Of a stretch of DNA of 64,000 nucleotides, positions 28,632 through 63,036 are shown piece after piece. Each line of letters begins with the position of its first letter. Within the stretch, counting starts at the first letter, position 1. The position numbers and the translations under genes were made by a program. Below the pieces are notes generated by a model. The model made no database searches and was not told the DNA's origin. It worked only from the letters and a program-made list of their open reading frames with translations. The stretch is from Mycobacteriales bacterium (GTDB lineage: Bacteria > Actinomycetota > Actinomycetes > JAFAQI01), in NCBI GenBank assembly GCA_035501255.1, contig DATJWM010000008.1, positions 1,488 to 65,487 of the forward strand, in the 5' to 3' direction.

Positions 28632-28665
28632 CGCAACCGCTCCGGTGCCACGTCAAGGAGAGTTC

Positions 28666-35677: not shown

Positions 35678-35800
35678 CTGTCGTTACGCGGCTTTCGCGG
35701 CTCGCCGAAATCCGGCCTTAACGTCCCGTCCGTGCCATCATGAGCGCGCAAGGGGGAATGAGCACGATCCTGCCCGGAAGTCGGACCTGTGGAGGGCTCG

Positions 35801-36514: not shown

Positions 36515-36592
36515 TCGACCTCCGATCGGTCCGCGGCGTACCCAGCTCGCTCGGGTCAGGATTGGGACCACGACTCTGATTGGATCCGCGGG

Positions 36593-37654
36593 GTGACCTA
36601 CCTGACCCGCTCGGACCGGATCATCGTCGGCGCGTCGGCGCTCCTCACGCTGGTCGCGGGCCTTCTCGCCTACGGCCACGGCAACGAAACCGCGACCTTC
36701 ATCGTCTCGGCGTTCGCGCTCGCCGCGCTCGCCGCGCTCGTCGGGCGCTGCGTCGAGCAGGTTTCCGACCGGCTGGGTTCGGGTGCGACCGGGGTCGTGC
36801 AAAGCGCGCTGGGGAACCTGCCCGAGCTGTTCGTCTGCATCTTCGCGCTCCGATCCGGACTCACCGAGGTGGTGGAGTCGGCGATCATTGGCTCGATCCT
36901 TGGCAATGTCCTGCTGGTCCTCGGGGCCGCGTTCTTGATCGGCGGCTTGCGTAACGGCAAGCAGACCTTCGACGGTGGCCGCGCCCGGATGCTGATCGCG
37001 TTGATGATCCTCGCGGTCGCTGCCATGTTGGTTCCGAGCCTTGCCTCCTATGTGCACACCCCCGCCGCCGCGCACGAACAGGTGCTGTCCGACGTCGCGT
37101 CGATCGTGCTGCTCACGGTCTTCGTGCTGTCGCTTCCGGCGTCGATCCGCCGGGCCGAGGCCGAGGGAGGGGATCCCGGCCGCCACGAAGCGAGCTGGCC
37201 GATGTCCGTGGCGGTGATGGGACTCGCGATCACCGGTGTGCTCGCGGCCCTGGTGTCGGACTGGTTCGTCGACGCGCTCCTTCCTGCACTCGACGCCCTG
37301 CACATCTCGCAGGCGTTTGCCGGTCTCGTGATCGTCGCCATTGCCGGCAACGCCGTGGAGAACGTGGTGGGGGTTCAGCTGGCCCGCCGCAACCAGCCCG
37401 ACACGGCGGTCTCGGTCATCCTCAACTCGCCGATCCAGATCGCGCTCGTGCTCGCGCCGGTGCTCGTGCTCATCTCGCCGATCCTCGGCGGCGCGAACTT
37501 CACACTGGTCTTCCCGCCGCTGCTCGTCACGACGGTGGTGTCCGCCATCCTCGCGGTCAGCTTCGTGATCGTCGACGGCGAATCCGATTGGCTCGAGGGG
37601 GTGGCGCTCCTCGGCCTCTACACGGTGATCGCCGCGTCCTTCTGGTGGGGGTAG
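36593..37654 (+). CDS. Ca2+/H+ (cation/proton) exchanger, CAX family
   Basis: Two alpha-repeat motifs (GNLPELF and GNAVENV). 353-aa polytopic membrane protein. Confidence 0.8.
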   Translation: MTYLTRSDRIIVGASALLTLVAGLLAYGHGNETATFIVSAFALAALAALVGRCVEQVSDRLGSGATGVVQSALGNLPELFVCIFALRSGLTEVVESAIIGSILGNVLLVLGAAFLIGGLRNGKQTFDGGRARMLIALMILAVAAMLVPSLASYVHTPAAAHEQVLSDVASIVLLTVFVLSLPASIRRAEAEGGDPGRHEASWPMSVAVMGLAITGVLAALVSDWFVDALLPALDALHISQAFAGLVIVAIAGNAVENVVGVQLARRNQPDTAVSVILNSPIQIALVLAPVLVLISPILGGANFTLVFPPLLVTTVVSAILAVSFVIVDGESDWLEGVALLGLYTVIAASFWWG

Positions 37655-37689
37655 CGGCGACCCACACCCCTGGCGTACGACGGCCGGTC

Positions 37690-37703
37690 GGCGCACGTGC
37701 GCC
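37690..37703. promoter_or_regulatory. Perfect 14-bp palindrome GGCGCACGTGCGCC in the secA 5' region
   Basis: Read directly. The sequence is identical to its own reverse complement. It lies ~65 nt upstream of the secA start, followed by a TTGACG -35-like hexamer. Confidence 0.3.
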
Positions 37704-37766
37704 CTAGACTTGACGGCGCGTGGTCGGCCCTGACCGCGCATGCTCGCGAGGTGGCTGGAGGAGTCC

Positions 37767-40619
37767 GTGGCGGTATTCGACCGGATCATGCGTGCCGGCG
37801 AGACCCGGATCGTCCGCAAGCTTGAGGCGATTGCCGGGCAGGTCACGCTGCTCGAAGAGGACTACCGGGCGATGTCCGACGAGGAGCTCAAGGCCACGAC
37901 CGAGGAGTTTCGCGAGCGGCTGGAGGACGGCGAGTCCCTCGACGACCTGATGGTCGAAGCATTCGGGGTTGTGCGCGAGGCCGCGTGGCGAGTGCTCGGG
38001 CAACGGCCCTTCGACGTCCAGGTGATGGGCGCCGGAGCGCTGCACATGGGCAACATCGCCGAGATGCGGACCGGCGAGGGAAAGACGCTGACGGGGGTGA
38101 TGCCCGCCTACCTCAATGCTCTGTCGGGCAACGGCGTCCACGTCGTCACGACCAACGACTACCTCGCGAAACGAGATGCCGAGTGGATGGGTCGCATCCA
38201 CCGATTCCTCGGCCTGAAGGTCGGCGTGATCCTCGCGTCGATGACACCGGCCGAGCGACGTGAGCAGTACGCCTGTGACATCACCTACGGGACGAACAAC
38301 GAGTTCGGCTTCGACTACCTGCGGGACAACATGGCCTGGCAGGAAGACGAGCTCGTTCAGCGCGGCCACAACTTCGCGATCGTTGACGAGGTCGACTCGA
38401 TTCTGATCGACGAAGCGCGGACGCCGTTGATCATCAGCGGTCCGGCCGAGCACAACGCAAAGTGGTACCTCGAGTTCGCGCGAATCGCGAGCCGACTGGT
38501 CCGCGACGTCGACTACGAGTGTGACGAGGGCAAGCGGACGATGAGCGTCCTCGAGTCCGCGGTCGAACGGGTCGAGGACGAACTCGGGATCGACAACCTC
38601 TACGAGGCGGTCAACACCCCACTGGTCGGCTATCTCAACAACGCGTTGAAGGCGAAGGAGCTGTTCAAGCGCGACAAGGACTATGTCGTGATGAACGGCG
38701 AGGTCCTGATCGTCGACGAGTTCACCGGTCGAATCCTCGCGGGCCGCCGCTACAACGAGGGCATGCATCAGGCCATCGAGGCCAAAGAAGGCGTCGAGAT
38801 CAAGCAGGAGAACCAGACCCTCGCGACGATCACCCTCCAGAACTACTTCCGGCTCTACGACAAGCTCGGCGGCATGACCGGCACGGCCGCGACCGAGGCC
38901 GCCGAGTTCGACCAGGTCTACAAGCTCGGCGTCGTAACGATTCCGACCAACCGGCCGATGGTGCGGGCCGACCAGCCCGACATCGTCTACAAGACTCAGG
39001 ACGCGAAGTGGTCCGCGGTGGTGGACGACATCGCCGACCGGCACGAGAAGGGCCAACCGATCCTCGTCGGAACCACCAGCGTCGAGAACAGCGAACACCT
39101 GTCTGGCCTGCTGCTGCGCCGCGGCGTTCCGCATGAGGTGCTCAACGCGAAGTACCACGAGAAGGAGGCCGCGATCATCGCGCAGGCCGGCCGCCGTGGA
39201 GCGGTGACGGTCGCCACCAACATGGCCGGTCGCGGCACCGACATCATGCTCGGGGGAAACCCCGAGTCGATGGCCACGATGGAGCTCGCGGCGCGCGGGC
39301 TGACCCCCGCCGAGACACCCGACGACTTCGAGGCGGCGTGGTCAGGTGCGTTGGAGAAGGCCAAGGCGTCGGTCGCGGCCGAGCACGACGAGGTGGTCGA
39401 CCTCGGCGGCTTGTACGTGCTGGGCACCGAGCGCCACGACGCGCGTCGGATCGACAACCAACTCCGGGGACGTTCCGGCCGCCAGGGAGACCCGGGTGAG
39501 TCCCGGTTCTACCTGTCGTTGGGCGACGACCTCATGCAGCTGTTCAACGCCCACATGGTCGAGTCGATCATGGACCGGCTCAACCTTCCCGACGATGTCC
39601 CGATCGAGTCGAAGATGGTGTCCCGGTCGATTCGGTCGGCCCAGACCCAGATCGAGCAGCAGAACTTCGAGATCCGCAAGAACGTCTTGAAGTACGACGA
39701 AGTTCTCAACCGGCAGCGGACCGTCATCTACGACGAGCGCCACCGGGTCCTTGCCGGCGAGGACCTCCGTGAGGAGATCGCGCACATGATCGAGGACGTC
39801 GTTGCTGCCTATGTCGACGGTGCCACCGGCGAGGGCTACAGCGAGGACTGGGACCTCGACGCGTTGTGGACCAACCTCAAGACCCTCTATCCGGTGGCAG
39901 TCACCGTCGAGGAGCTCGATGAGCGCTCCGGTGGATCCCTGTCGACCGAGTATCTGCGCGACGAGCTGATCGACGACGCACTCGGCGCCTACGAACGCCG
40001 GGAGGAGCAGCTCGGCATGACGCCGGACGACGAGCCGGTGCTGCGCATGCTCGAACGCCAGGTGCTGCTGACCGTGCTCGACCGGCGCTGGCGCGAGCAC
40101 CTCTACGAGATGGACTACCTGCAAGAGGGCATCCAGTTGCGCGGTTATGGGCAGCGGGATCCGCTCGTCGAGTACCAGCGCGAGGCCTTCGACATGTTCA
40201 CCGCGATGATGGATGGCATCAAGGAGGAGTCGGTCGGGTTCCTGTTCTACGCCGACGTGAGCATCCAGGCCGTGGGCGACGACGACGTCGTCGTGGACGA
40301 GGAAGGTGTGCTCGTCGTACCGGTCGAGGGGGACGAGGGAGCGAGCGCGATCGGCGTCCCGCAGGTCGTGGACAGCGCTGCCGCTCAGGAGCGGGCCGCC
40401 GTCGGCGACGTGCTCAGCAAGGCGCTCGGCGACGCGTACCGCCCGGCCAACCTCCAGTTCAGCGCGCCGACCATCGACGGTGAAGGCGGTGTCGAGCGGC
40501 ACGCGCAGGCCGCTCCGGCGGGGTCTGCGTCGTTCGCCAACACCTCGCGCAATGCGCCGTGTCCGTGCGGGTCGGGCCGCAAGTACAAGCGGTGCCACGG
40601 CGCTCCACAGGGAGCGTGA
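37767..40619 (+). CDS. secA: Preprotein translocase ATPase SecA
   Basis: DEAD-motor motifs ([28 protein letters not shown]) and C-terminal zinc finger [17 protein letters not shown] 37767 chosen by N-terminal alignment to SecA. ATG 37740 is possible. Confidence 0.9.
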
Positions 40620-49509: not shown

Positions 49510-51138
49510 ATGGACGCAATCAGCGCGGTGCCAGGACCGGTCAACGAGCCGGTTCTTTCCTACGCCCCCGGGTCGCCCGAACGCCAGCAGCTCGCCTCCG
49601 CGCTGGAGACGATCCGATCCGCATCGCCGGTCGACCTGGCGCTCACGATCGGCGGCGAGCGGGTCGCGGGTGAGGGTGCGCCGATCGAGGTCGTGGCGCC
49701 GCATCGGCATGCAGCGGTTCTCGGCCATACCTGGAACGCCACGACGAGCCAGGTCGGCGCCGCGGTGGACGCCGCCCTGGCCGCTCGTGCGTCCTGGCGG
49801 GCGCTCGACTTCGACGAGCGGGCGGCGGTCTTCCTCAAGGCCGCCGACATCCTGACCGGACCCCGTCGCGCGCAGGTCAACGCGGCGACGATGCTCGGGC
49901 AGTCGAAGACCTGCTTCCAGGCCGAGATCGACGCCGCCTGCGAGCTCGCCGACTTCTGGCGGTTCAACGTGCACTTCGCGCAGGAGATCCATCGCGACCA
50001 GCCGAGGTCGTCGCCCGGAGTGTGGAACCGGTTCGACCACCGGCCGCTCGAGGGGTTCGTCCTCGCGATCACCCCGTTCAACTTCACCGCGATCGCCGGT
50101 AACCTCCCGACCGCGCCCGCGTTGATGGGGGCGTGCGTGGTGTGGAAGCCGTCACCCACCCAGGCCCTGTCCGCCCAGGTCGTGCTGGAGGTCCTCGAGC
50201 AGGCGGGTCTGCCGCCGGGTGTGATCAACCTCGTGACCGGTGACGGGCACGCCGTCAGCGAGGTTGCCCTCGTTCACCCCGACCTCGCCGGGATCCACTT
50301 CACGGGATCGACCGCGACGTTCCGCCGGCTCTGGCAGTCGATCGGTGCGAACCTGCCCGCCTATCGCGACTACCCCAGGATCGTGGGTGAGACGGGCGGC
50401 AAGGATTTCGTGATCGCGCATCCATCGGCCGATCTCGACGCGCTGCGGGTTGGCCTGATCCGCGGCGCCTTCGAATACCAGGGTCAGAAGTGCTCGGCGG
50501 CGTCGCGCGCCTATCTCCCCGAGTCGGTGTGGACCACACTGCGCGACGACCTGCTCGCCCAGACCGACGGTCTCGCGATGGGCGACCCGTGCAACTTCAC
50601 CAACTTCCTCGGTGCGGTCATCGACCGCCGCGCGTTCGACCGGCACGCCCGGGTTTTCGAGCAAGCCCGCGCCGATGCATCGCTGTCGGTGCTGGCCGGG
50701 GGGACGACGGAGGACACCGAGGGCTTCTTCGTGCGGCCGACGATTCTGCTCGCCGACGATCCTGGTCATGAGGTGTTCACGACCGAGTTCTTCGGCCCGA
50801 TCCTTTCTGTCTTCGTCTATCCCGATGCCGACTTCGAGCAGATGCTCGCGACCGCCGCGACCACGTCGCCGTACGCCCTCACCGGCGCGATCTTCGCGCG
50901 CGACCGCGAGGCGGTGGCGACGGCGACCGAGGCGCTGCGGTATGCCGCCGGCAACTTCTACATCAACGACAAGCCCACCGGGGCAGTCGTCGGCCAGCAA
51001 CCCTTCGGCGGGGCGCGAGCGAGTGGCACCGACGACAAGGCGGGATCGGCGCACAACCTGTTGCGGTGGACCAGTCCACGGGTGATCAAGGAGACCTTCG
51101 TCGCGCCGACGGACTACCGCTATCCGCACATGGGCTGA
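49510..51138 (+). CDS. pruA: L-glutamate gamma-semialdehyde (1-pyrroline-5-carboxylate) dehydrogenase
   Basis: ALDH-superfamily member with catalytic FEYQGQKCSAAS and ETGGKD motifs. 542 aa. Confidence 0.85.
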   Translation: MDAISAVPGPVNEPVLSYAPGSPERQQLASALETIRSASPVDLALTIGGERVAGEGAPIEVVAPHRHAAVLGHTWNATTSQVGAAVDAALAARASWRALDFDERAAVFLKAADILTGPRRAQVNAATMLGQSKTCFQAEIDAACELADFWRFNVHFAQEIHRDQPRSSPGVWNRFDHRPLEGFVLAITPFNFTAIAGNLPTAPALMGACVVWKPSPTQALSAQVVLEVLEQAGLPPGVINLVTGDGHAVSEVALVHPDLAGIHFTGSTATFRRLWQSIGANLPAYRDYPRIVGETGGKDFVIAHPSADLDALRVGLIRGAFEYQGQKCSAASRAYLPESVWTTLRDDLLAQTDGLAMGDPCNFTNFLGAVIDRRAFDRHARVFEQARADASLSVLAGGTTEDTEGFFVRPTILLADDPGHEVFTTEFFGPILSVFVYPDADFEQMLATAATTSPYALTGAIFARDREAVATATEALRYAAGNFYINDKPTGAVVGQQPFGGARASGTDDKAGSAHNLLRWTSPRVIKETFVAPTDYRYPHMG

Positions 51139-51147
51139 CCGGCTCGC

Positions 51148-51495
51148 TCAGCCCTCCGCTTGTCGCATGGCTTCTTTCACATAGTGGGCGAAGCGCTGCT
51201 GCGCGGCCTGCTTGCTGACACCGAGGGCCGTACCGATGGTCGCCCACGGCACCTCGTGCGCCCGACACTCGCCCACGATCGAGAGCAGCGCCCAGTCGAC
51301 CCGTTCGGCAATCGCGGCCAGATGTCCGAGCGCGGCGAGGAGCGCGGGTGGCTCGTCGGACACCGGATCCCCGGACTCCGCGACCGCGGTTCGCAGGCTG
51401 CGGATGACCGCCGCCAGTGCCCGGTCGGGGATCCGCTCACCGCCCAGCCAGCCGAGGTCGGCGTAGGAGGGGTACGGCCACGGGGAGTCTGTCAT
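51148..51495 (-). CDS. Small HTH DNA-binding protein (115 aa), divergent from the giant repeat-protein gene
   Basis: C-terminal HTH VPWATIGTALGVSKQAAQQRFAHYV. ATG 51495. Confidence 0.55.
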   Translation of the reverse strand: MTDSPWPYPSYADLGWLGGERIPDRALAAVIRSLRTAVAESGDPVSDEPPALLAALGHLAAIAERVDWALLSIVGECRAHEVPWATIGTALGVSKQAAQQRFAHYVKEAMRQAEG

Positions 51496-51559
51496 CGGTC
51501 ACCGGATCCAGGTCGGGTTGAGCCGGGCGAGTCGGTCCGAGCGTCCCCCGACACCCCGA

Positions 51560-51570
51560 TCTTGTCAAGA
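51560..51570. promoter_or_regulatory. 11-bp palindrome TCTTGtCAAGA overlapping a TTGACG -35-like hexamer in the divergent intergenic region
   Basis: Read directly. Located between the HTH gene (start 51495) and the giant gene (start 51662). Confidence 0.25.
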
Positions 51571-51661
51571 AAGGTTGACGAAATCGGCCGACCACCCCGC
51601 TACGCCAAACGGATGAAGGGAATGCGACCCCGGACGGTCAAGGCGGACCTGGATCAGGTCG

Positions 51662-54600
51662 ATGTTCGCGCTGATGGGGAGGTATTGGTTTCGGCGGGTA
51701 CGCGGCAACGAGTGGGGCCGCGTGGCTGCGGCTTGCCTCGCCGCTGCGCTGTTCACCGCCGGCGGGTTGACCAACGTCGACGGATCGGCATCCGCGGCAC
51801 CGGGCGATGCTTCGATTTCCAGCGCCCCGCCGGCTCGGACCGCGACCGATGGATCGACCACGACGACCCTCGACTGGACGATCTCCACCCCCGCCGTCGA
51901 GACCCAGTGCGAGCTCACCCGGGACGGTAATCCGATCGCGGCCTACCCGGCCGCGGACTGTTCGAGCGGCGATGTCAGCTTCGACGTCACGAGCTGGGGT
52001 GCCTACACCCTGACCGTGACGCCGACGGTGGGCAACGGCGCGACCTCATCCGTCAGTGTCGTACCGACCGCGGTCGAGCTCGACTCGGCGCCGACGAGTC
52101 CGGGCAACGACCGCACCCCGACGTGGACGTTCTCCGCCCTCGCCGCTGCGGACAGCGTCGAGTGCACCCTCACCGGTCCGGCCGGCTCGGTCGTCGACGA
52201 CCAGACGTCGTGCACCAGTCCATACACCGCACCCGACCTGTCCGGGGTGGCACCTGCCGACGGAGGCCCCGGCACCTACCACCTCGCCGTCGTCCAGACC
52301 GGCGACGGGCAGGCGTCGGACCCGCTGACGTCCGCCTACGCGTGGCAGCCCCCGGCGCCGACCGTGACCGCCGACGCGTCGCTGGGATACTCCCGCAGCC
52401 CGACGTTCACCGTGGGCAACCTCGACGGGGCCGCGACCACAACCTGCACGCTCGATCCACCCTCGGGTGGACCGGCGGTGTCGGTCGCCGCCTGTGGAGC
52501 GTCGACGAAACTCGATCTGACCGGCGGCGACGACGGTACGTACACGGTCCACGTCCGCCAGAGCGTCAACGGCGTCACCAGCGACCCCGCGAGCGCGACC
52601 TACACGTTGGACACCCATATCCCCAGTACGCCGACCGTGTCCGCGTCGTCGAGTTTCGGCACCGGCCCGCACGCGACCTTCATGGTCGGCAACATCGACC
52701 CGGACGCGCAGGCGGAGTGCACCGTGACCGGCCCGTCGGCGGTCCCCAACTCGGCCGTCACGTGCGCGAGCCCGCAGACGGCGGTCGACCTGTCCGGACT
52801 GGCCGCAGGAACCTACACGCTGTCCGTGGTCGAACGCGACACGGCCGGCCGGGACGGCCCGGCGGCTACGGCGACCTACGAATACCTGCCGACCGCGCCC
52901 CCCGCACCCGAGGTCACCCCCGCGACCCGGACCGACAACGTCCGGTCGCCGCAGCTGTCGGTCACCGACGCGGAGAACGCGACCCTGACCTACAGCTGCA
53001 CCGTCACCGGCCCGTCTCCCGTCGCCAACCCGGATTGCTCGAGTGGCTCCCCGACACTGGACCTGTCCGGGGCCGCAGACGGCACCTACACACTCCATGT
53101 CACCGCCACCGACAGCGCCGGTCAGACGAGCAGCGCGGGTACGGCGACCTACACCCTCGACACCTTCACTCCCGACCCGACCGTGACGCTCACCTCACCC
53201 GCGACGTCGCCGGGAAGCGTGACGGCGGTCACCTTCTTGATCGGCGACTCCGAATCCGGGGACACCTTGACCTGCACCTGGTCGGGTCCGGCGACCAACA
53301 CCTCAGGTCCATGCCCGCCCGGCGGCGGCTTTGTCGCGAGCGGCGGTTCGGGTGTCTACACGTTGACCGTGACCGCGAAGGACCAGGTCGGCAACACCAC
53401 CGATTCCGGCGGGAACCCCGCCCGCGTGACCGCCACCTATGTCCTCGACAACAGCACCCCCGCGCCGGTCGTCACGCTGACCAGCGCGTCGAGCCCCAAC
53501 TCACCGCCCGGAGCGGACGCGTCGAGCAGCCAAACTGCGTCGTACTCGATCGTCGACAGCGAGGCCACCTCCGGTCCTGACACGTTCGACTGCGTGTGGA
53601 CCGGCCCCGGGTCGACCACCGTCCACACTCCGGGTTGCAGCAGTGGTGCCGCGTTCACCGCTTCCGGCGGCGAGGGGTATTACCACCTCACGGTCACGGC
53701 GACCGACACGCTCGGCAACTCCGCCTCCACGTCGAAGACCTACCTGTTCGACGCGACGACTGGGGCGCCGGTGGTCTCCCTCAACGGACCGTGGACCGAA
53801 CCGCTCACGACGACGACACCCTCGTTCTCCTTCTCCGACCCGGCGGAGGTGCTCGATGGTCCCGACACCTACACCTGCGACCTGGTCGGTCCCGACCACG
53901 TGGATGCCGGCTTCTCGCCGTGCGCGAGTGGGCCGATCACCACGGCCGGCCATGGCGGTGACGGCGCATACACGCTGACCGTCGCGGCGATGGACGCGCT
54001 CGGCAACGTGGACACCTCCGGTGGAGTGCTCGCGACCACCAGCTACCCGTTCACCGTGGACACGACGACGCCGGACCCGACCGTCACCGTCAACACCGCG
54101 TTGTCATCGCACGGCACGGCGAACGTCGTGACTCCGTCGATCTCGATCTCGGACAGCGAGGCCGGCGACACCCTCACCTGCACGTGGACCGACCCGCACG
54201 GCACAACGGTCTTCTCGGGTGCGTGCCCGCAGCCGTGGACGATCGGCACCGATGGCATCGACGGCACGTACGTGTTGACCGTCGATGCGACGGACCAGGC
54301 CGGCAACACCACCGACCCGTCCGGACACCCTGCCAGCACGACCATCAGCTACACCTACGACGGCTCAACACCGAAGCCGGTCCTCAGCCTGACCACTCCG
54401 GTCTCCCCGCACGGGGTCGGGACGTCGAAGTCGCCGACCTTCTCGATCTCGGACTCGGAGACCACTGATCTGCCCGAGACGTTGACCTGCGGTTGGGTCG
54501 ATCCGCACGGCGTCGTCACGACCGCGCCCTGCCCGTCGGGCGGCACGTTCTCGGCGGGCGCCGGGGACGGCACGTACACGCTGATGGTGGACGCCTCCGA

Positions 54601-57600
54601 CTCGCTCGGAAACGCCACGGACCCGGCCGGCAACCCCGCGACGGCCATGGCGACCTACACGCTGGACGCCACGACCCCGGATCCCACCGTCACCCTCATC
54701 ACGCCCGTCTCGTCCGCCGGCACCGCGACGACAACCTCCCCGCAGTTCTCCATCATCGACAACGAGACGCTCGACGGTCCCGACACATTGGTGTGCACGT
54801 GGACCACGCCGGGTCCGATTGCGAGCGCGACGACGACACCGTGCCCGCCCAACGGCATCTTCGCTGCGACCAGCGGGGACGGCACGTACACCTTGACGGT
54901 GACCGCGACCGACGCGCTGGGCAACAGCACCGATCCCGCCGGCCACCCTGCATCCGCCAGTGCGACCTACACCCTGGACGCGACGACTCCCGACCCGGTC
55001 GTGAGCCTTCTCACGCCGCTCTCGCTCGCCGGTACGGCGAACAGCAAGGCGCCGGTCTTCGCGATCAGCGACGGCGAGAGCGCGGACGGGCCATCGACCC
55101 TGGGCTGTACCTGGACCGCGCCCGGCGGCTCAACCATCAGTGCGGGGACCTGCCCCGCCAACGGCACCTTCCCGGCCATGTCGGGAGACGGCACCTACAC
55201 GTTGACCGTCACCGCGACCGACGCGCTCGGCAATGTGCTGGACCCGCTCGGAAAGCTTGCGCAGACCACCGCGACGTACACGCTCGATGCCACGACGTTC
55301 GCCCCGGTCGTCACGTTGTTCAACCCGACAAGCTCTCCGGGCAACGTGAAGAAGCCGGCGTTCACCTTCACCGACGCCGAGACCGTTGATGTTCCGGAGA
55401 CCTTCAGCTGTACGTGGGTCGGACCGGACCACGTCACGATCAGCAGCGGCGCCTGCACCAGCGGTCAGACGTTCCCCACGAGTGGGCACGGTGACGGCGC
55501 GTACACGTTGACCGTGACCGCCAGCGACGCGCTCGGCAACGCCGTGGACGCCACCGGCAACCCGACGGTGACGGTGTTCACCTACCTGCGGGACACGACC
55601 ACGCCTGACCCCACGGTCACGCTCACGACCCAGGCCTCGCTGACGAGCCCAGCACCCCCGACGTCCACGGTGAAGAACCCGGTGTACTCGATCACCGACT
55701 CCGAAGCCGTCGACGGCCCGGACACGTTGACCTGCTCGTGGACCACACCCGGACCCAGTCCGGTCACGACGACCGGCGTGTGCCCGGCGAACGGCCGGTT
55801 CGCGGCCACCGCCGGCGACGGCACCTACACCTTGACCGTCACTGCTCAAGACGCGCTGGGCAACACGGTGGACGGCGCCGGAAACCCGGCCTCGACGACG
55901 GTCACCTACACCCTCGACACTGCCACGCCGAGCCCAACGGTGTCGCTCGCGAGCGGGACCTCGCCGTCGACCAACACCGACCCGGCGTTCACCATCACCG
56001 ACGCGGAGTCGGTCGATCCTCCCGAGACCTACCTGTGCGACTGGATCGGGCCCAATGGGATCGACTCCGGCGCCTCGCCCTGCACCAGCGGTGCGGACTT
56101 CCCAACCGCCGGTCACGGAGGCGACGGCGTGTACACGCTCACCGTCACCGCCACCGACGCGTTGGGCAACACGACCGACCCGGTCACCGGCCGGCCCGCG
56201 TCGACGACGGTCGCCTACACCCTCGACACCGCGACGCCCGTGCCGACCGTCGCCCTGACCGCCGGTGAGCACACGCCGTCGAACAACACCTCCCCGGCGT
56301 TCGCGTTCTCCTCGACGGATGCCTACGACGGGCCGGACACCTACGCCTGCGTCTGGGTCGGGCCCGACGGAGTGAACACCGGACCGGCCAGTTGCGCGAG
56401 TGGTGACCACTTCGCCACGGCAGGCCACGGCGGCGACGGTAGGTACGTTCTCACCGTCACGGCCACCGACAAGCTCGGGAACTCGGCGACTTCGGCGCCG
56501 TTCGTCTACAGCCTCGACACCTCGACGCCGGTACCGGTCGTTGCCCAAACGGCCCCGGTCGCCACGGTGGCGAACTCGCTGACACCGACCTTCTCCCTCA
56601 CCGACGCCGAGACTCAGGACGGTCCCGACACCTTCACCTGCAACTGGGTGGGACCGAGTGGCACCGCGGTGTCCAACGCCGCCTGCACCGACGGCGTGGT
56701 TCTGCCGGCCTCGGCCGGCGACGGGGTCTACACCCTCACTGTCACTGCGATCGACACGGTCGGGAACACCGCGTCAGCCGCACCGCTCACCTACACCCTC
56801 GACACCACGCCACCGCTACCACCGATCGTCACCCTCAACAGCGCGACCCGCTCCTCGATCGCGACGGGGTACTGGACCTGGCAGTACGCCTACGCAGACA
56901 CCGACTCGGCGGAGGAGACCGCCTCGTGCACGGTGACCGGTCCCGGCGGGTGGACGCAGACCGTGCCCGGCTGCGCGCATGAGCTCTCGGTCGTCCTCGG
57001 CGGTGGCGACGGCGCGTACGTGCTGACCGTGACGCTGACCGACGAGGCCGACAACTCGACCTCTTCGGTGGCACCGACCTACAACCTGGACTCCACCGCC
57101 CCGGCCGGACCGGTGGTCCGCAACCTGAACCCGAGAAGCGGTGAGGGCCGCACCCGCCATCCGAGCTGGACGATCGTGGTGCCCCCGGGCTCCGATGCGC
57201 TCTGCACGCTGATCCAGGGCGGGCGCAATGGCACCCGGCTGATCGTCGACGAACAGTGCCCGAAGCCGGCGCAGTTCAGCCTGGCCGGGCGACCGGACGG
57301 GCAGTACACGCTGCGAGTCGTCGCCTACGACAAGGTCGGCAACGTCAGCGCCCCTGCCTGGGGCTACTACCTGCTCGCGCCCGACGCCCCGAAGGTCCTG
57401 CCGCCGGCGGACGACTCCTCGCCTGCGGTCTGGACGGTGCGCGGCAACCCGACCGACAGCAACGTGTGCACACTCGAGCACGGCGGGAAAGTCGTCTCCG
57501 CCCCCCGCTCGTGCGGGAACAACCCGACGTATGACATGCGGTCCCTCCCGGACGGGACCTACACCCTGTCGGTGTACCAGGTGGGGGTCCAGGGGCTGCA

Positions 57601-58054
57601 AGGGCCTCCGGGGACGGCGAGCTGGCACTGGTCGGTGCGCGGATCCACGCAGCCACCGCCGAGAACCCAGGTCGGCCCGGGCGACCGCAAGCGTCGCCAC
57701 CCTGGCCCGACTCGGTCAGGGCAGCAGCAGACGATCGTTCCTCCGGTCCGAGGCCATCCGCACCTCAACGCCGGCGGTGACACCGGGCCGCCGCTCAACA
57801 TCCACCTGCCGCTCCAGACTCCGGACCGCATCAGCAAGGACGTGGTCCAAGCGGTCCGGGGGGTGGTCCACACGGTCGGCCGAGCGGGGGGTGGCACCGG
57901 ATTCCCGCTGCTCCTCCTCGGCCTGGTGATGCTCTTCCTGCTGGCGCAAAACCGGATCGACCGCAGGGACCCGAAACTTGCCTCCGCTTCGATTGCTGCC
58001 GATGACTTGGTGGAGTTCGAACCACCTCCGAGTCAGCGAGAGGACACCCCATGA
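51662..58054 (+). CDS. Giant secreted cell-surface protein (2130 aa) with ~20 tandem Ig-like repeats and a C-terminal membrane anchor (putative adhesin)
   Basis: Signal peptide with AxA site (SASAAPGD). About 20 units of ~100 aa each carry the motif C..W.GP...C..G..F....DGTYTLTVTATDALGN. C-terminal hydrophobic helix FPLLLLGLVMLFLLA plus RIDRRDPK. No LPXTG. Confidence 0.8.
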   Translation: MFALMGRYWFRRVRGNEWGRVAAACLAAALFTAGGLTNVDGSASAAPGDASISSAPPARTATDGSTTTTLDWTISTPAVETQCELTRDGNPIAAYPAADCSSGDVSFDVTSWGAYTLTVTPTVGNGATSSVSVVPTAVELDSAPTSPGNDRTPTWTFSALAAADSVECTLTGPAGSVVDDQTSCTSPYTAPDLSGVAPADGGPGTYHLAVVQTGDGQASDPLTSAYAWQPPAPTVTADASLGYSRSPTFTVGNLDGAATTTCTLDPPSGGPAVSVAACGASTKLDLTGGDDGTYTVHVRQSVNGVTSDPASATYTLDTHIPSTPTVSASSSFGTGPHATFMVGNIDPDAQAECTVTGPSAVPNSAVTCASPQTAVDLSGLAAGTYTLSVVERDTAGRDGPAATATYEYLPTAPPAPEVTPATRTDNVRSPQLSVTDAENATLTYSCTVTGPSPVANPDCSSGSPTLDLSGAADGTYTLHVTATDSAGQTSSAGTATYTLDTFTPDPTVTLTSPATSPGSVTAVTFLIGDSESGDTLTCTWSGPATNTSGPCPPGGGFVASGGSGVYTLTVTAKDQVGNTTDSGGNPARVTATYVLDNSTPAPVVTLTSASSPNSPPGADASSSQTASYSIVDSEATSGPDTFDCVWTGPGSTTVHTPGCSSGAAFTASGGEGYYHLTVTATDTLGNSASTSKTYLFDATTGAPVVSLNGPWTEPLTTTTPSFSFSDPAEVLDGPDTYTCDLVGPDHVDAGFSPCASGPITTAGHGGDGAYTLTVAAMDALGNVDTSGGVLATTSYPFTVDTTTPDPTVTVNTALSSHGTANVVTPSISISDSEAGDTLTCTWTDPHGTTVFSGACPQPWTIGTDGIDGTYVLTVDATDQAGNTTDPSGHPASTTISYTYDGSTPKPVLSLTTPVSPHGVGTSKSPTFSISDSETTDLPETLTCGWVDPHGVVTTAPCPSGGTFSAGAGDGTYTLMVDASDSLGNATDPAGNPATAMATYTLDATTPDPTVTLITPVSSAGTATTTSPQFSIIDNETLDGPDTLVCTWTTPGPIASATTTPCPPNGIFAATSGDGTYTLTVTATDALGNSTDPAGHPASASATYTLDATTPDPVVSLLTPLSLAGTANSKAPVFAISDGESADGPSTLGCTWTAPGGSTISAGTCPANGTFPAMSGDGTYTLTVTATDALGNVLDPLGKLAQTTATYTLDATTFAPVVTLFNPTSSPGNVKKPAFTFTDAETVDVPETFSCTWVGPDHVTISSGACTSGQTFPTSGHGDGAYTLTVTASDALGNAVDATGNPTVTVFTYLRDTTTPDPTVTLTTQASLTSPAPPTSTVKNPVYSITDSEAVDGPDTLTCSWTTPGPSPVTTTGVCPANGRFAATAGDGTYTLTVTAQDALGNTVDGAGNPASTTVTYTLDTATPSPTVSLASGTSPSTNTDPAFTITDAESVDPPETYLCDWIGPNGIDSGASPCTSGADFPTAGHGGDGVYTLTVTATDALGNTTDPVTGRPASTTVAYTLDTATPVPTVALTAGEHTPSNNTSPAFAFSSTDAYDGPDTYACVWVGPDGVNTGPASCASGDHFATAGHGGDGRYVLTVTATDKLGNSATSAPFVYSLDTSTPVPVVAQTAPVATVANSLTPTFSLTDAETQDGPDTFTCNWVGPSGTAVSNAACTDGVVLPASAGDGVYTLTVTAIDTVGNTASAAPLTYTLDTTPPLPPIVTLNSATRSSIATGYWTWQYAYADTDSAEETASCTVTGPGGWTQTVPGCAHELSVVLGGGDGAYVLTVTLTDEADNSTSSVAPTYNLDSTAPAGPVVRNLNPRSGEGRTRHPSWTIVVPPGSDALCTLIQGGRNGTRLIVDEQCPKPAQFSLAGRPDGQYTLRVVAYDKVGNVSAPAWGYYLLAPDAPKVLPPADDSSPAVWTVRGNPTDSNVCTLEHGGKVVSAPRSCGNNPTYDMRSLPDGTYTLSVYQVGVQGLQGPPGTASWHWSVRGSTQPPPRTQVGPGDRKRRHPGPTRSGQQQTIVPPVRGHPHLNAGGDTGPPLNIHLPLQTPDRISKDVVQAVRGVVHTVGRAGGGTGFPLLLLGLVMLFLLAQNRIDRRDPKLASASIAADDLVEFEPPPSQREDTP
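53130..56800 (+). repeat. Intragenic tandem ~300-bp DNA repeats encoding the Ig-like units
   Basis: Recurrent near-identical stretches, e.g. gacggcac(g/c)tacac(g/c)ttgaccgt(g/c)accgcgaccgacgcgct(g/c)ggcaa at ~54885 and ~55190. Confidence 0.6.
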
Positions 58055-59622
58055 CGGCCGCCGGGCAGCCGAGCAGCGACCTTGTGCCGCTGAGCGAACG
58101 CCTGCTCTACCTGCGGGTCATGCGGGCCGTCCTGGTCGCCCTGGTCGTCCTCGACGCGGCGCTGCTCCCACAGTTGCTGCGCACCTCGTTCCTCGTTGTC
58201 GCCTCGGTGTCGCTCGGGTACCTCCTCGTGTGCCTGGCGATCGAAGGCATTTGGCGGCTGATGCGACGGCCGGGGCTGTGGCTGTTCGGGGCACTTCTGA
58301 TGCTCGACGGCGTCTATCTCGCGGCCGCGACCTACACCTGCGGCGGCTCCGTTGGCCCGGTCCGCTATCTCGTGCTGGTCTACCTCTGCGCGGTCACCCT
58401 GCTCGGTTCGTACCGGACCGGCCTGAAGGTCGCGTTGTGGCAATCGTTGATGCAGATCAGCGTCTTCTACGCCCAGACCAGCGGGCTGCTGGCCAGCTTC
58501 GGCGGTGCTGCGGCCACCGCGACCGAGTGGTATCGGCTGGTCGCGTTCATCTTCGCGCTGTGGGCGTTGACGTTCACGACCGCGACCCTCGCCGCCGTCA
58601 ACGAGCGCGAGCTGCGGCGACGTCGCTATGAGTTCGAGCAACTGGCCCAGATGGGCCGGGACCTGGAAAACGCCGAAGACCCGCTGTCGGTCGGTGACGT
58701 CCTGCTCGGTGCCCTGGCCGACACGTTCGCCTTCCGCCGGATGGCCCTGTTCGAGGTGGGCGAGGACACCCCCCGCATGCTGACCTCGCGCGGGTTGCTC
58801 GACGCGGTGGTCGGAGACTTCCGGCTGGGGGACAAGTCGGTGCTGCGGGTGGTCAACGACTCGCGGGAGACCCTGCTCGTCTCCGAGGTCGATGAGGTCG
58901 CCGACCCGTGGCTCGCCGCGGTCATGCCCGCCGGGCGCAACCTTGCCGTCGTCCCGCTCGTCGCCGACGGCGTCGTCGGCGTTCTCGTGGTCGAGACCGG
59001 ACCGCGCCCGAAGGTCCGGATCGAACGCCGCGTCATCGCCACCATCGAGCGCTACGCCAGCCATGCCGCGCTCGCGATTCGCAACGCGAACCTGCTCGCC
59101 CGCGTGCAGCAGATGGCGGTCACGGACGGGTTGACCGAGCTGTCCAACCGTCGCGCCTTCGACCGATCGCTGGAGCGCGAGCTCGGTCGCGCGGCCCGCA
59201 CCGAGGGCCGGTTGTCGGTGGTCCTTCTCGACATCGACCACTTCAAGAATCTCAACGACAACCACGGTCACGTCGTCGGCGACAACGTGCTCCGGCAGAT
59301 CGCCAGGGCGCTCGCCCTGTGCGGGCGCGAGTACGACACGGTCGCGCGCTATGGAGGCGAGGAGTTTGCCGCCGTCCTGCCTGGCTGCTCGTCCGGACTG
59401 GCGATGCAAGTCGCCGAGCGACTGCGCGTGGCGGTCGAGGAAGCTCCCAGCGACGTCCACGTCACCGCGAGCTGTGGGGTGGCGACCTACCCCTACGACG
59501 GGATCGACGTCGACAGCCTGCTGAGCGCGGCCGACCGGGCGCTCTACGCCTCGAAGCGGGCCGGTCGCAACCAGGTGCGATCCGCCGAGCAGACCCGGCT
59601 GGACGCGGCCGCCACCGGCTGA
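58051..59622 (+). CDS. Membrane-bound GAF-GGDEF diguanylate cyclase
   Basis: ATG overlaps the giant-gene stop (ATGA). Domain order is ~190-aa polytopic N-terminus, a GAF-like domain, then GGDEF with intact GGEEF and I-site REYD (REYDTVARYGGEEF). Confidence 0.85.
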   Translation: MTAAGQPSSDLVPLSERLLYLRVMRAVLVALVVLDAALLPQLLRTSFLVVASVSLGYLLVCLAIEGIWRLMRRPGLWLFGALLMLDGVYLAAATYTCGGSVGPVRYLVLVYLCAVTLLGSYRTGLKVALWQSLMQISVFYAQTSGLLASFGGAAATATEWYRLVAFIFALWALTFTTATLAAVNERELRRRRYEFEQLAQMGRDLENAEDPLSVGDVLLGALADTFAFRRMALFEVGEDTPRMLTSRGLLDAVVGDFRLGDKSVLRVVNDSRETLLVSEVDEVADPWLAAVMPAGRNLAVVPLVADGVVGVLVVETGPRPKVRIERRVIATIERYASHAALAIRNANLLARVQQMAVTDGLTELSNRRAFDRSLERELGRAARTEGRLSVVLLDIDHFKNLNDNHGHVVGDNVLRQIARALALCGREYDTVARYGGEEFAAVLPGCSSGLAMQVAERLRVAVEEAPSDVHVTASCGVATYPYDGIDVDSLLSAADRALYASKRAGRNQVRSAEQTRLDAAATG

Positions 59623-59714: not shown

Positions 59715-59886
59715 CCGCGTGTGGGACCGTGCGCGAGAGGCCGCGAGGCCTCCCACGACGGCGGTTTCCCCGGAACTACGCCGCTGACGCTCGGACCGCG
59801 TCAAGCGGGCATCGCGCCCAGCCGATGGTGAATACGTGTCGACGGGAGAACTGACCTTCGTGGCAGGGAGGCCTGCGGGTTCGCGC

Positions 59887-61407
59887 ATGTCCCGCCGGAC
59901 GCGTCGGACCGGCCTGGTCGCGCTGACCGGCGTTCTCGCCGCCACCGCCCTCGCCCTGCCCGCGGCTGCGCACCCGGCGAGCGACAAGGCCCACCGGGTC
60001 GCGGTGCCGCACGGCATCCGGTTGGTCAATGTCTCCCCGTCCTCGTTTCAGGTCGAGAGCGCCCCGACCGAGAACGCCAAGCGCTATCGCGTGTTCGCCT
60101 CGACCAAGCGCAGCAACCTGTTCACCGCCAACGTCAGCCGCGCGCAGGCCTCGGCGCTGTTCTCCCACCCCCAGGTGCGGATCGCGGGTCTGCACTACAC
60201 GACCCGGCCGTACTACTACCGGCTCGAAGCAGTCAACGGGTCGCGCCATCGGTTCTCCCGTGACATCTACGAACTGGGTCTTCAACCACCCTCTCCGACC
60301 GGGCTCACAGTGCGAACGAGCGCGGCCGGCGGCACCTACCTCACGTGGGACAGTTCGTCCGCCACCGGGTTTCTCGTCACCGTGGCGAGGAACCCGGCGA
60401 TGACGCAGGGCCGGGTCAACTACCGCTTGACGAGCAACACGCACCAGTTCAGTCCTCCGCATCTCGTCGCGGGCCGGACGTACTACTTCCGGGTGCGCGC
60501 ACTGAACGACGCCACTCGCTCCGCTGACGCGGCGAGTGCCAACGGCACCGCGGGATCGAAGGAGCAACGCGTCCGGGTGATGACCTACAACGTGCTCGAG
60601 GCGTTCGATGACGGCCGGCTCGAGGGCAGCGGCCGGGTCGCGCCGTGGTCGAAACGCAAGGTGCGGGCCGCCGCGCTCATCCGCAAGGCTCACCCGGACG
60701 TGGTGGCCGTCCAGGAAGCCGCTTCGTGGGTCAAGGGCGTTCGCGGTCCACGCCAGATCGACTCCCTGCGCGCCCAGCTGCACGGGGTCTACGCGCTGGC
60801 GCACACCGAGATCCCGCCGAGCCAGCCGCACTATCTGCGGACCGGGGTGTACATCCTGTATCGCAAGTCGCAGTATCGCGCTGTCGGCCACGGTGGCCAC
60901 TGGGGTCTTGGAAACCGGCGCTGGGCGGCGTACCAGATCCTCGCCGACCGAGCGACCGGCGCGAAATTCCTGTTCGTCGACCCGCACCTGCTGGTCGGTC
61001 CAGGACGCGCCAATGACGTCAAGCGCAAGCACGAGACCCAGCGCCTGGTGTCGCGGGCGAAAGCCAAGGCGAAGCGGGCCGGGGTGCCGTTGGTCTACGC
61101 GGGCGACTTCAACTCCGACCAAACCGCGAAACACCCACTGAACGCGCCCGAGATGGTGATGTCGACGCACAACGTGGTCAACACCTTCGCGGCTGCACCG
61201 GTTCGGACGAACGCCGAGTACAACTCGGCGAACGGCTACGAACGCCGGCCGCCGCGCTTCGGCGACCACATCGACTACGTCTTCGCCGCACCGAGCGTCT
61301 CCGTCCTCGCCTGGCACCTGCTCCTCGACCTGCACCACGGGGAGTTCTCGGGCGTCATCCCGTCCGACCACAACCCTCTCGTCGTGGATCTTCAGTACCC
61401 GTACTGA
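59887..61407 (+). CDS. Secreted FN3-FN3-endonuclease/exonuclease/phosphatase (EEP) family protein, paralog 1
   Basis: RR-containing signal peptide MSRRTRRTGLVALTGVLAATALALPAAAHP and two FN3-like modules. EEP motifs VMTYNVLE...VVAVQEA...YAGDFNSD...SDHNPLVVDL. GTG 59836 is an alternative start. Confidence 0.75.
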   Translation: MSRRTRRTGLVALTGVLAATALALPAAAHPASDKAHRVAVPHGIRLVNVSPSSFQVESAPTENAKRYRVFASTKRSNLFTANVSRAQASALFSHPQVRIAGLHYTTRPYYYRLEAVNGSRHRFSRDIYELGLQPPSPTGLTVRTSAAGGTYLTWDSSSATGFLVTVARNPAMTQGRVNYRLTSNTHQFSPPHLVAGRTYYFRVRALNDATRSADAASANGTAGSKEQRVRVMTYNVLEAFDDGRLEGSGRVAPWSKRKVRAAALIRKAHPDVVAVQEAASWVKGVRGPRQIDSLRAQLHGVYALAHTEIPPSQPHYLRTGVYILYRKSQYRAVGHGGHWGLGNRRWAAYQILADRATGAKFLFVDPHLLVGPGRANDVKRKHETQRLVSRAKAKAKRAGVPLVYAGDFNSDQTAKHPLNAPEMVMSTHNVVNTFAAAPVRTNAEYNSANGYERRPPRFGDHIDYVFAAPSVSVLAWHLLLDLHHGEFSGVIPSDHNPLVVDLQYPY

Positions 61408-61506: not shown

Positions 61507-63036
61507 ATGAGCAGGCGCCGAGTGCGGCTTGCCGCCGTCGCGATGTCGGCGGCGTGCGGTCTTGCCGGCCTCGCCGTGCCCACGATCGCCCACGCTGGCA
61601 CCAGCCGCCCCGAGTTGCCGACGTCGGTCCAGCTGGTGCGGGTAACGCCGTCGTCGTTCACGGTCTCCGCGATCGGGGCCCACAACGCGCACCAGTTCCG
61701 GCTCTTTGCCTCGACGACCCGCAGCAACTTGTTCGTCCGCAACATCAAGGCGGCAACCAAGTCGCACCTCTCCTCGAGCCCGACGGTGGCGCTTCACGGC
61801 CTGAAGTACGCCGCCGAGCCGTACTACTACCGCCTCGAGGTCTTCAACGGGCAGCGGCATCGCTTCTCCTCGACGATCTACTCGGTCGGCCTGCTCCCCG
61901 CCGTGCCGACCGACCTTGCCGCAACCGTCACGATGAACGGCACGTTCCTCACCTGGAGCAGCGGCCCCGCCTCGGGCTTCCAGATCACCGAGGCCACCGA
62001 CGAGGCGATGACCCAGGACGTGCGCACATTCACGACGTCCGGGATGACGACGTCGTTCACTCCGCCCGATCTGGTCGCCGGGACGACGTACTACTTCGAG
62101 GTCGCAGCGCTCAACAACGACACCGCGTCGGCACCCACGAGTCCGGTCTCCGCCGTGCCGGAAACCGACAGCCAGGACGTTCGGGTGATGACCTACAACA
62201 TCCTGGAGTCCTTCGACGACGGTCGAGCTGAGGGCGGCGGTCACGTCGCGCCGTGGTCGGAGCGGGTCAACGGAGTGGTCAACTACATCCGCCAAGGCGC
62301 GCCGGACGTGGTGGCAATCGAGGAAGGCGCGGGCTGGGCGTACGGCTCGAAAGGTCCGCGCCAGGTCGACCAGGTCGTCTCGGAGCTGGGCGACTACTCG
62401 CTCGCGGACACTGAGATCCCGCCGACCGAACCGCACTACCTGCGCACCGGCGTGTACGTGCTCTACAAGACCTCCGAGTACACCGCGATCGGCCAGGGTG
62501 ACCATTGGGACCTCGGAGACACTCGCTGGGCGGCGTACCAAATCCTTCAGAACAACGTCACCGGGGCGACCTTCCTGATGGTCGCAGCGCACCTGCTTGT
62601 CGGTCAGGGAGCCGCTTATGACAAGAAGCGGGAGGCGGAGACGACCAACCTGCTCTCCCTCGCCAACGCCTACGCGGCGGCGAACGGCAACATTCCGATC
62701 GTGTACGCCGGGGACTTCAACTCCGACAACGCCCGCCGGCGCACCTTCAACGCCCCCGCCGTGGTCATGCAGGGGGCCGACGTGAGCGATGCGTTCAACG
62801 TCGCGGTGCACAAGTCGATGACGAAGTACGACTCGGCGAACGGCTACATGCGCAAGCCCCCGAAGTTCAGCGAGCGGCTGGACTACGTCTGGGCCCCGCA
62901 GGGGGTGGCGGTCACGAGCTGGACCCAGCTCCTGAACCTCAACAAGGGCAAGGTGGTCGGGGTGATTCCCTCCGATCACAACCCGGTCGTCGCCGGCGTC
63001 CAGGTGCCGTACGCACCACCCGCTCCGTCGGACTAG
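61507..63036 (+). CDS. Secreted FN3-FN3-EEP family protein, paralog 2
   Basis: Signal peptide MSRRRVRLAAVAMSAACGLAGLAVPTIAHA. Same architecture and motifs as paralog 1 (VMTYNILESFDDGR...SDHNPVVAGV). Confidence 0.8.
   Translation: MSRRRVRLAAVAMSAACGLAGLAVPTIAHAGTSRPELPTSVQLVRVTPSSFTVSAIGAHNAHQFRLFASTTRSNLFVRNIKAATKSHLSSSPTVALHGLKYAAEPYYYRLEVFNGQRHRFSSTIYSVGLLPAVPTDLAATVTMNGTFLTWSSGPASGFQITEATDEAMTQDVRTFTTSGMTTSFTPPDLVAGTTYYFEVAALNNDTASAPTSPVSAVPETDSQDVRVMTYNILESFDDGRAEGGGHVAPWSERVNGVVNYIRQGAPDVVAIEEGAGWAYGSKGPRQVDQVVSELGDYSLADTEIPPTEPHYLRTGVYVLYKTSEYTAIGQGDHWDLGDTRWAAYQILQNNVTGATFLMVAAHLLVGQGAAYDKKREAETTNLLSLANAYAAANGNIPIVYAGDFNSDNARRRTFNAPAVVMQGADVSDAFNVAVHKSMTKYDSANGYMRKPPKFSERLDYVWAPQGVAVTSWTQLLNLNKGKVVGVIPSDHNPVVAGVQVPYAPPAPSD

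Follow-up and report, generated by a model that had tools for sequence, protein, structure and literature searches.

A giant Ig-repeat surface protein and a diguanylate cyclase as a putative two-gene signalling cassette of uncultured soil Actinomycetota

In Pseudomonas fluorescens, the giant repeat-rich surface protein LapA is genetically tied to membrane signalling by cyclic di-GMP (c-di-GMP), which is a second messenger, in a system that includes the receptor LapD, with its HAMP, degenerate GGDEF and EAL domains, as well as LapG, a type I secretion system and an N-terminal retention module. A different relationship between a membrane sensor and a surface component is found in Pseudomonas aeruginosa, where the six transmembrane (TM) segments of PilS directly bind a conserved membrane segment of PilA (PMC6058289), and a further pilin-based parallel comes from Caulobacter, where PilA acts through PleC and PleD and a membrane pilin raises c-di-GMP (PMC7196804). 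Gram-positive surface proteins linked to c-di-GMP are found among the riboswitch-controlled adhesins of Firmicutes, namely CbpA of B. thuringiensis and surface proteins of C. difficile, and a characterised GAF-GGDEF cyclase of Actinomycetota, Streptomyces CdgE, is listed without TM segments (PMC7423583, PMC7865049 for the adhesins; PMC6205966, PMC7911125 for CdgE). Here we describe a pair of overlapping genes, encoding a giant surface protein with immunoglobulin-like (Ig) repeats and a membrane diguanylate cyclase, in a 64,000-nucleotide stretch of DNA (the window in what follows) from a Mycobacteriales bacterium (assembly GCA_035501255.1, contig DATJWM010000008.1), and compare it with these systems.

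A preliminary description of this DNA had drawn attention to a repeat-protein open reading frame (ORF) of 2130 amino acids (aa) adjoining a cyclase gene, and to a stop/start overlap at their junction; coordinates, lengths and overlap all proved exact, as follows.

51662..58054, plus strand: giant tail-anchored surface protein, 2130 aa (ORF, Pfam, self-HMM, a hidden Markov model (HMM) built from the protein's own repeats)
58051..59622, plus strand: six-transmembrane (6TM, PilS-like)-GAF-GGDEF diguanylate cyclase, 523 aa (Pfam, NCBIfam, relatives, AlphaFold2 (AF2) model, PDB matches)
58051..58054, plus strand: ATGA stop/start overlap, a signature of translational coupling (junction sequence)

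The junction reads ...gacacccc-ATGA-cggcc, the TGA of the giant gene and the ATG of the cyclase gene having 4 nucleotides (nt) in common, and no terminator-like site lies between the two genes.

Comparison of related loci suggests that this pair is one case of a phylum-wide two-gene signalling cassette in uncultured soil Actinomycetota. The linkage of the cassette is reciprocal and near-obligate, with the 4-nt overlap as its dominant junction. A scan of GTDB species genomes with the N-terminal half of the sensor (TM segments and GAF, without GGDEF) yielded 239 relatives, and the best 80 of these, all from metagenome-assembled genomes (MAGs), comprise Frankiaceae/Mycobacteriales at 63-80% identity and Acidimicrobiales, Solirubrobacterales/Thermoleophilaceae and Nitriliruptorales at 37-50%. 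Of the 78 GTDB loci that include upstream DNA, 65 have a co-directional ORF that bears the C-terminal tail described below and ends between -29 and +19 nt from the sensor start; L047, one more locus, was missed by the regular expression and carries the tail motif with a single substitution. Starting instead from the tail motif alone, 66 of 69 metagenome loci have a sensor start between -32 and +29 nt from the stop of the tail gene. Because each of the two collection scans relied on short exact peptide patterns and retained the best 80 loci only, these frequencies apply to the loci sampled; for distant loci, the start of the sensor gene was extrapolated from alignments. Among 132 pairs, 94 overlap by 4 nt and 6 by 1 nt. 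The possibility, raised in the preliminary description, that the adjacency might be unique to this strain fails because the adjacency recurs across four classes of Actinomycetota. All-versus-all clustering of ORFs from 82 loci found no third component (protease, PilZ, glycosyltransferase or regulator) common to the distant groups.

It is very improbable that the two genes are mere operon hitch-hikers, co-transcribed without a functional relationship. Although the functional tie between them is drawn from sequence alone, reciprocal linkage spans four classes, in which sensor identity is 37-80%, and the overlap has been kept; the invariant tail occurs essentially only beside a 6TM-GAF sensor. 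The literature searched held no description of the cassette and the libraries searched no equivalent actinobacterial module, in agreement with the preliminary description, which knew of none in Actinobacteria; that the homologues seen all come from uncultured organisms, as do the top 120 matches to a Solirubrobacteraceae query, may explain the lack of descriptions.

What the sensor retains as its conserved partner, judged by alignment of the loci, is the TM helix and cytoplasmic tail of the surface protein and not its Ig array. In the window these two elements are placed as follows.

57902..57946, plus strand: C-terminal TM helix FPLLLLGLVMLFLLA, aa 2081-2095 (hydropathy maximum; conserved P...F in the tail alignment)
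57947..58051, plus strand: cytoplasmic tail, conserved; aa 2096-2107 read QNRIDRRDPKLA, and ...L-x-F-x-PPP follows up to the C-terminus

The tail consensus consists of a short hydrophobic helix followed by Q-[ND]-R-I-D-R-[RSN]-D-P-K-L-A-(L)-A-P...L-x-F-x-P-P-P. Two alignments, one of 33 and one of 52 tails, show no variation at the Q, the D, D-P-K-L or the distal F, and the motif is assigned to the cytoplasmic face because of the N-terminal signal peptide and the basic cluster that follows the helix. The length of the upstream partner ORF ranges from 145 to 3269 aa across loci while the tail is constant, and within the window's own lineage it falls from 2784 aa to ~170 aa. The shortest of these (locus L018, 8833-9402), which lies beside a sensor of 70% identity, has no Ig domain and is made up of the tail preceded by a signal peptide and a low-complexity linker. 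In locus L009 (9940-10000) the giant gene has been deleted, and its last ~18 tail codons, ...DADDMVDFSTPPSRRGRP with the stop codon, remain before the cyclase.

In an exhaustive profile search of 1.84 billion representative proteins, clustered at 50% identity, the tail was present in 1895 protein clusters (1028 of them at E<=1e-10), always at the extreme C-terminus, in carrier proteins of up to 2672 aa; long carriers have Big_13-type arrays, and several of 350-480 aa are without any Pfam domain. The last 141 aa of the giant protein match no Pfam or NCBIfam model at E<=10, and none of the known C-terminal sorting signals in NCBIfam (PEP-CTERM, GlyGly-CTERM and others) matches this segment. The tail thus appears to define a large and new family of C-terminal domains, which the Pfam and NCBIfam searches did not recognize. 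Matches to the tail profile in a word-indexed database of 5.8 billion proteins were fragments of 38-107 aa only. Tail-only mini-proteins were considered and set aside, the two examples checked being frameshift-fragmented gene calls on long-read contigs. Two such loci, L083 and L084 (long-read contigs ERZ250395xx), are split by apparent frameshifts, which give rise to spurious 60-100-aa 'tail-only' database proteins.

The other member of the cassette, the 523-aa protein, is predicted to be an active-looking, product-inhibited diguanylate cyclase in which all catalytic and I-site residues are intact. Its parts, from N- to C-terminus, are as follows.

58090..58599, plus strand: six-helix membrane domain, aa 14-183 (AF2; 6TM_PilS PF25323 in relatives; regional conservation)
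58600..58671, plus strand: juxtamembrane signalling helix, with invariant NERELRRRR at aa 184-192 (conservation, AF2)
58681..59118, plus strand: GAF domain, aa 211-356 (Pfam matches of relatives, Foldseek)
59116..59574, plus strand: GGDEF catalytic domain, aa 356-508 (Pfam, motifs)
59326-59337, plus strand: I-site REYD (motif)
59353-59367, plus strand: GGEEF active-site motif, aa 435-439 (motif)

The GGDEF domain is recognized by PF00990 (E 6.5e-46) and by TIGR00254 (162.6 bits). R426-E-Y-D429 is followed by TVARY-GGEEF, placing the end of the RxxD five residues upstream of GGEEF, and D394, N402, D411, R426, D429, GGEEF, K502 and R506 are invariant in 38 relatives. D394, N402, D411, K502 and R506 we take to be the equivalents of PleD D327, N335, D344, K442 and R446, mapped by motif position only. 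An AF2 model built from an alignment of 63 orthologues (mean predicted local distance difference test score, pLDDT, 83.5, against 39 for a single-sequence model) has TM helices at 14-38, 47-71, 76-96, 104-118, 121-144 and from 153 onwards, then a signalling helix, an alpha/beta domain at 211-356 and a GGDEF fold; its best PDB matches by Foldseek are the GAF-GGDEF protein Dcsbis (4zmu) and phytochrome-GGDEF cyclases, over 335-414 columns. The six predicted helices and the two motifs agree with the polytopic membrane cyclase with intact GGEEF and RxxD that had been proposed earlier. The GAF domain of the same proposal stands at the level of family and fold, with GAF, GAF_2 or GAF_3 matches in 29-31 of 38 family members and support from the AF2 fold, whereas the window sequence itself has no Pfam GAF match at E<=0.01. 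The protein has no EAL domain, and it scores 57.6 bits against the NCBIfam LapD model, for which the cutoff is 1020.

The Pfam family 6TM_PilS (PF25323) aligns end to end with the membrane domain of the window protein at 8 bits, against a gathering score of 27 bits, and is found in 16 of the 38 relatives at E<=0.01 (best 2.8e-7). The three outside loops of the sensor are at most 8 aa long and contain no position that is at least 90% conserved, so that the sensor would seem to be without means to see the outside directly. Conservation lies elsewhere: D86 in TM3 is invariant, as is S120-x-R122-x-G124 in a cytoplasmic loop (SYRTG here), where Y121, T123 and K126 are nearly so. The mean majority fraction in this loop (119-126, SYRTGxK) is 0.88, and 12 of 24 positions in the juxtamembrane helix are at least 90% conserved; the two are the most constrained non-catalytic parts of the sensor and lie on the cytoplasmic face of the membrane. 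The conserved face of the sensor thus meets the membrane where the invariant motif of its partner sits.

These observations fit a reading that we hold with moderate confidence, in which the surface protein is a docked co-sensor that feeds the cyclase, the two forming a stoichiometric complex for outside-in signalling that ends in c-di-GMP. The closest functional precedent would be PilS, which reads PilA inside the membrane, followed by the c-di-GMP-raising membrane pilin of Caulobacter, and not the control of LapA by LapD. The product of the first gene would be exported by the Sec pathway with a freely variable ectodomain and held in the cytoplasmic membrane by its C-terminal TM helix and QNRIDRRDPKLA...F.PPP, and the second gene's product would offer its 6TM domain and juxtamembrane face as the docking site for this helix and tail. 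The state of the surface protein, whether its amount in the membrane, its engagement of a ligand or surface, tension or the loss of its ectodomain, would then set cyclase activity by way of the GAF domain and the signalling helix, the output enzyme being an active, product-inhibited cyclase or, in some lineages, a kinase. Sensors that read ectodomain engagement or tension, that read ectodomain loss, or that count membrane copies would look alike by sequence. The more specific proposition that the Ig filament is a mechanical or ligand antenna, so that contact with a surface or a neighbouring cell is passed through the TM helix and tail to the 6TM-GAF module and switches the cyclase, is one that we regard as rather unlikely.

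The same membrane domain and tail also lend themselves to another interpretation, in which the 6TM domain is a sortase-, exosortase- or rhombosortase-like factor dedicated to a new sorting signal at the C-terminus, with signalling in second place. The C-terminus of the partner is indeed tripartite, with a small Pro-containing motif, a ~14-residue hydrophobic helix and a basic cluster; D86, S120 and R122 are invariant in the membrane domain, and a rhomboid gene lies nearby in 12 distant loci. Yet the strongest conservation in the tail is cytoplasmic and extends ~35 residues beyond the helix, unlike that of known sorting signals, none of which is matched in NCBIfam; the 6TM domain has no invariant Cys or His among the 38 relatives and matches a sensor family; and cyclophilin-rhomboid genes accompany the cassette in those 12 loci only. 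A role in sorting or processing therefore has very little to commend it.

Evidence on the direction of signalling comes from loci in which the output domain has been exchanged. In six loci (L131, L133, L145, L148, L152 and L160) the tail is paired with a 6TM_PilS-GAF-HisKA_3-HATPase_c protein instead of a cyclase, so that about 10% of tail-anchored loci have a histidine-kinase output and ~90% a GGDEF output. The 6TM_PilS domain reaches 29.1 and 34.9 bits in the kinase variants, above the gathering score, and in L152 a NarL-type response regulator (Response_reg+GerE) follows the kinase. The partner proteins of these kinases are short and have no Ig domains, and they keep Q-N-x-[LMIV]-D-R-R-D-P-K-L-A. 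Because the same tail accompanies a histidine-kinase sensor, it would track the sensor module and not c-di-GMP, and its retention with a kinase output argues for a flow of information from surface protein to sensor and not from c-di-GMP to adhesin. Binding of c-di-GMP by the tandem RxD-RxD of the tail is disfavoured, as the kinase-paired tails keep the motif.

This pattern bears directly on inside-out control, by which locally made c-di-GMP would act on the Arg- and Asp-rich tail of the giant protein, with its tandem RxD-RxD, or on an unlinked effector, and would govern retention, shedding or display of the adhesin in the manner of LapD. The cyclase is active-looking and has an I-site, as is typical of locally acting diguanylate cyclases, its gene is co-translated with that of the giant protein across the ATGA overlap, and LapD and LapA supply a precedent (PMC3032545, PMC3032553). 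Set against these points, the tail core is kept where a histidine kinase, which does not make c-di-GMP, takes the place of the cyclase; the loci hold no LapD-like receptor, EAL, PilZ, protease or conserved third gene; the Ig array is dispensable within the lineage (L009 and L018); and no c-di-GMP-I or c-di-GMP-II riboswitch was found by Rfam, either at the gathering score in the window or at E<=1 in 51100-51900. We consider inside-out control improbable. The LapA/LapD type of logic that the preliminary description saw here is accordingly not borne out, since there is no LapD, EAL domain, conserved protease or third gene, and the giant protein has a Sec-type signal and a TM anchor and is not a type I secretion substrate. 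The likeness to LapA/LapD/LapG is limited to a giant repeat-rich surface protein genetically tied to membrane c-di-GMP signalling; LapG and the N-terminal retention module are likewise missing here, LapD is a receptor whereas the enzyme here is a synthase, and the linkage here follows the sensor domain and not c-di-GMP.

PilS and PilA also provide a precedent for stock-keeping autoregulation, in which the 6TM sensor would gauge the membrane amount of the tail-anchored protein, as PilS does that of PilA, and feed back on the operon, the environment of the ectodomain being irrelevant. The PilS-like 6TM domain of the sensor and the conserved membrane and juxtamembrane segment of the partner are in keeping with such a scheme, and transcription could be a direct target of those kinase variants that have a NarL-type regulator. 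The GGDEF cassettes that make up 90% of cases, on the other hand, have no linked c-di-GMP-responsive transcription factor or riboswitch, and the strong diversification of the ectodomain is left unexplained; we regard stock-keeping as rather unlikely. The sensor membrane domain falls in or near Pfam 6TM_PilS, and the kinase variants are architecturally PilS-like. The partner here, however, is not a pilin but a tail-anchored protein of type I, conserved at its C-terminus in an element that is largely cytoplasmic; between membrane domain and output there is GAF where PilS has PAS, the output is mostly GGDEF, the kinase variants are of the HisKA_3/NarL type and not the NtrC type, and both genes lie in one overlapping operon.

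Several observations weigh against the co-sensor reading. The pairing is not absolute, as no tail gene could be detected in 12 or 13 of the 78 sensor loci, and 3 of the 69 tail loci are without a co-directional sensor next to the tail gene. Some metagenome loci, such as L145 and L148, are near-duplicates, and every example comes from MAGs or metagenomes. The match of the window protein to 6TM_PilS is insignificant (E 2.8), its assignment depending on relatives, and the direction of signalling is read from the domain-swap pattern only.

Accessory single-pass membrane proteins of sensor kinases, such as YycH and YycI with WalK and LiaF with LiaS, set sensor activity through TM contacts. The cassette would belong with such arrangements as a membrane sensor with a co-encoded single-pass accessory protein, what is new being, as far as the comparison of loci goes, the tail family and the giant Ig-array partners. 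Its proteins differ from those examples in belonging to different families and in having huge hypervariable ectodomains, a unique invariant cytoplasmic motif and mainly a c-di-GMP output. Among cyclases, Dcsbis (PA2771), one of the best structural matches, shares the cytoplasmic GAF-GGDEF arrangement; Dcsbis and CdgE are both listed without TM segments or a coupled surface-protein gene, whereas the cyclase here has a 6TM domain and a partner, and CdgE was rejected as an orthologue on the ground that it is a GAF-GGDEF protein listed without TM segments. The c-di-GMP adhesins of the CbpA type and of C. difficile are sortase-anchored. Those adhesins resemble the present case in being Gram-positive surface proteins linked to c-di-GMP, but here there is neither a riboswitch nor an LPXTG motif, and the linkage is to the cyclase gene itself.

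Upstream of the TM helix, the giant protein in the window has the following parts.

51662..51799, plus strand: signal-peptide-like N-terminus, aa 1-46, predicted cleavage after ASA (read from the translation)
51863..57703, plus strand: 20 tandem Big_13-type Ig-like domains, aa 68-2014, one Cys pair each (self-HMM, Pfam)
57704..57901, plus strand: Pro/Gly/Arg-rich spacer, aa 2015-2080, presumed to span the wall (translation, alignments of orthologous tails)

The N-terminus resembles a Sec signal, with a basic n-region, VAAACLAAALFTAGGL and ASA|AP discerned by eye in the translation. The self-HMM, which was built iteratively, delimits exactly 20 units of 83-106 aa, each with exactly two Cys 13-18 residues apart; these account for 40 of the 41 Cys of the protein, and the remaining one belongs to the signal peptide. 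In Pfam the units fall into Big_13 (202 bits, E 2.1e-60) and related bacterial Ig-like families. The units appear to be old, because they are 27-64% identical to one another and Tandem Repeats Finder (TRF) detects no DNA-level tandem repeat in the giant gene, and recent repeat expansion was ruled out on the same grounds. The spacer ends in a lineage-conserved VQxVVxxVGxAGGGTG segment (alignments of orthologous tails), and apart from the signal peptide the sole hydrophobic segment by hydropathy is at aa ~2079-2096; the expression L[PA]xT[GAS] finds no match near the C-terminus. The signal peptide, the approximately 20 Cys-pair Ig-like units and the C-terminal TM anchor without a sortase motif that had been noted earlier are thus all borne out. 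An array of 20 disulfide-containing Ig domains would probably form an extended filament tens of nm long.

The pair had also been placed in an accessory-looking block at the end of a conserved backbone, a description that does not hold for the pair itself. The 5' block (patatin, DUF6912, aldehyde dehydrogenase and a small divergent gene) is syntenic with the pair in 13-15 related loci and GC content is flat across the region; with this synteny, and with variability only downstream, the pair belongs to the core. The interval 28525-40619, ~11-23 kb upstream, contains the conserved actinobacterial genes sahH, lpqB and hpf, those for a LuxR-type response regulator and a Na/Ca exchanger, and secA, a neighbourhood that places the module in the core chromosome. 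We take this upstream stretch to resemble the conserved actinobacterial sahH-mtrAB-lpqB-secA region, a likeness that rests on sahH, lpqB and secA. Two features immediately precede the giant gene.

51496..51661, plus strand: intergenic region 5' of the giant gene, presumed promoter and 5' untranslated region
51148..51495, minus strand: 115-aa protein, divergent from the giant gene (same position in 14 close loci and in distant L055)

The intergenic region is without a sigma-70-like consensus site and has no match to any Rfam family. The 115-aa protein, with weak helix-turn-helix (HTH)/Myb-like Pfam matches only, is a lineage-specific conserved neighbour outside the phylum-wide core and may be a local regulator.

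The genes on the 3' side differ among loci. Directly downstream of the cyclase in the window are two secreted paralogues, 50% identical, that combine FN3 with an endonuclease/exonuclease/phosphatase (EEP) domain (59836-61407 and 61507-63036, both plus strand). These look like a truly variable insertion, because only one of the 82 related loci, L017, has a homologue. In L002 (11466-15722, minus strand) and nine other close loci, a convergent gene 3' of the cyclase encodes a 1418-aa protein with FHA and a double FtsK/SpoIIIE ATPase, an architecture that in our judgement is like that of the type VII secretion ATPases EccC/EssC; no such gene was seen in the window, whose end lies 964 nt past the second EEP gene. 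In L069 (6920-8830), L063 (11229-12938) and ten other distant loci, all of one sub-lineage, a cyclophilin and a rhomboid protease are encoded just downstream of the cyclase. Cyclophilin and rhomboid genes adjoin in actinobacterial genomes generally, and their presence beside the cyclase is for this reason probably unrelated synteny, although a rhomboid beside a single-pass TM partner offers a lead for ectodomain shedding.

Nearly all that is known of c-di-GMP signalling in Actinomycetota comes from mycobacteria and from the development of Streptomyces (BldD, CdgA-F), and to our knowledge the input sensed by most cyclases is not known. The cassette would present a cyclase family with its probable input attached, in the form of a co-translated surface protein that is invariant only in the segment expected to contact its sensor. 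The natural swaps of GGDEF for histidine kinase furnish an argument on which way the signal runs and a means of approaching the matter by experiment, and with the tail as a marker thousands of surface proteins now listed as 'hypothetical' in soil metagenomes could be annotated. If docking is correct, giant wall-spanning proteins would be coupled to a second messenger in Gram-positives without machinery of the LapD/LapG type. Should the antenna proposition also prove true, the cassette would be the first dedicated outside-in surface-sensing device described for Actinomycetota, and its tail a 'sensor-docking' C-terminal family that lets any ectodomain plug into a c-di-GMP or two-component output.

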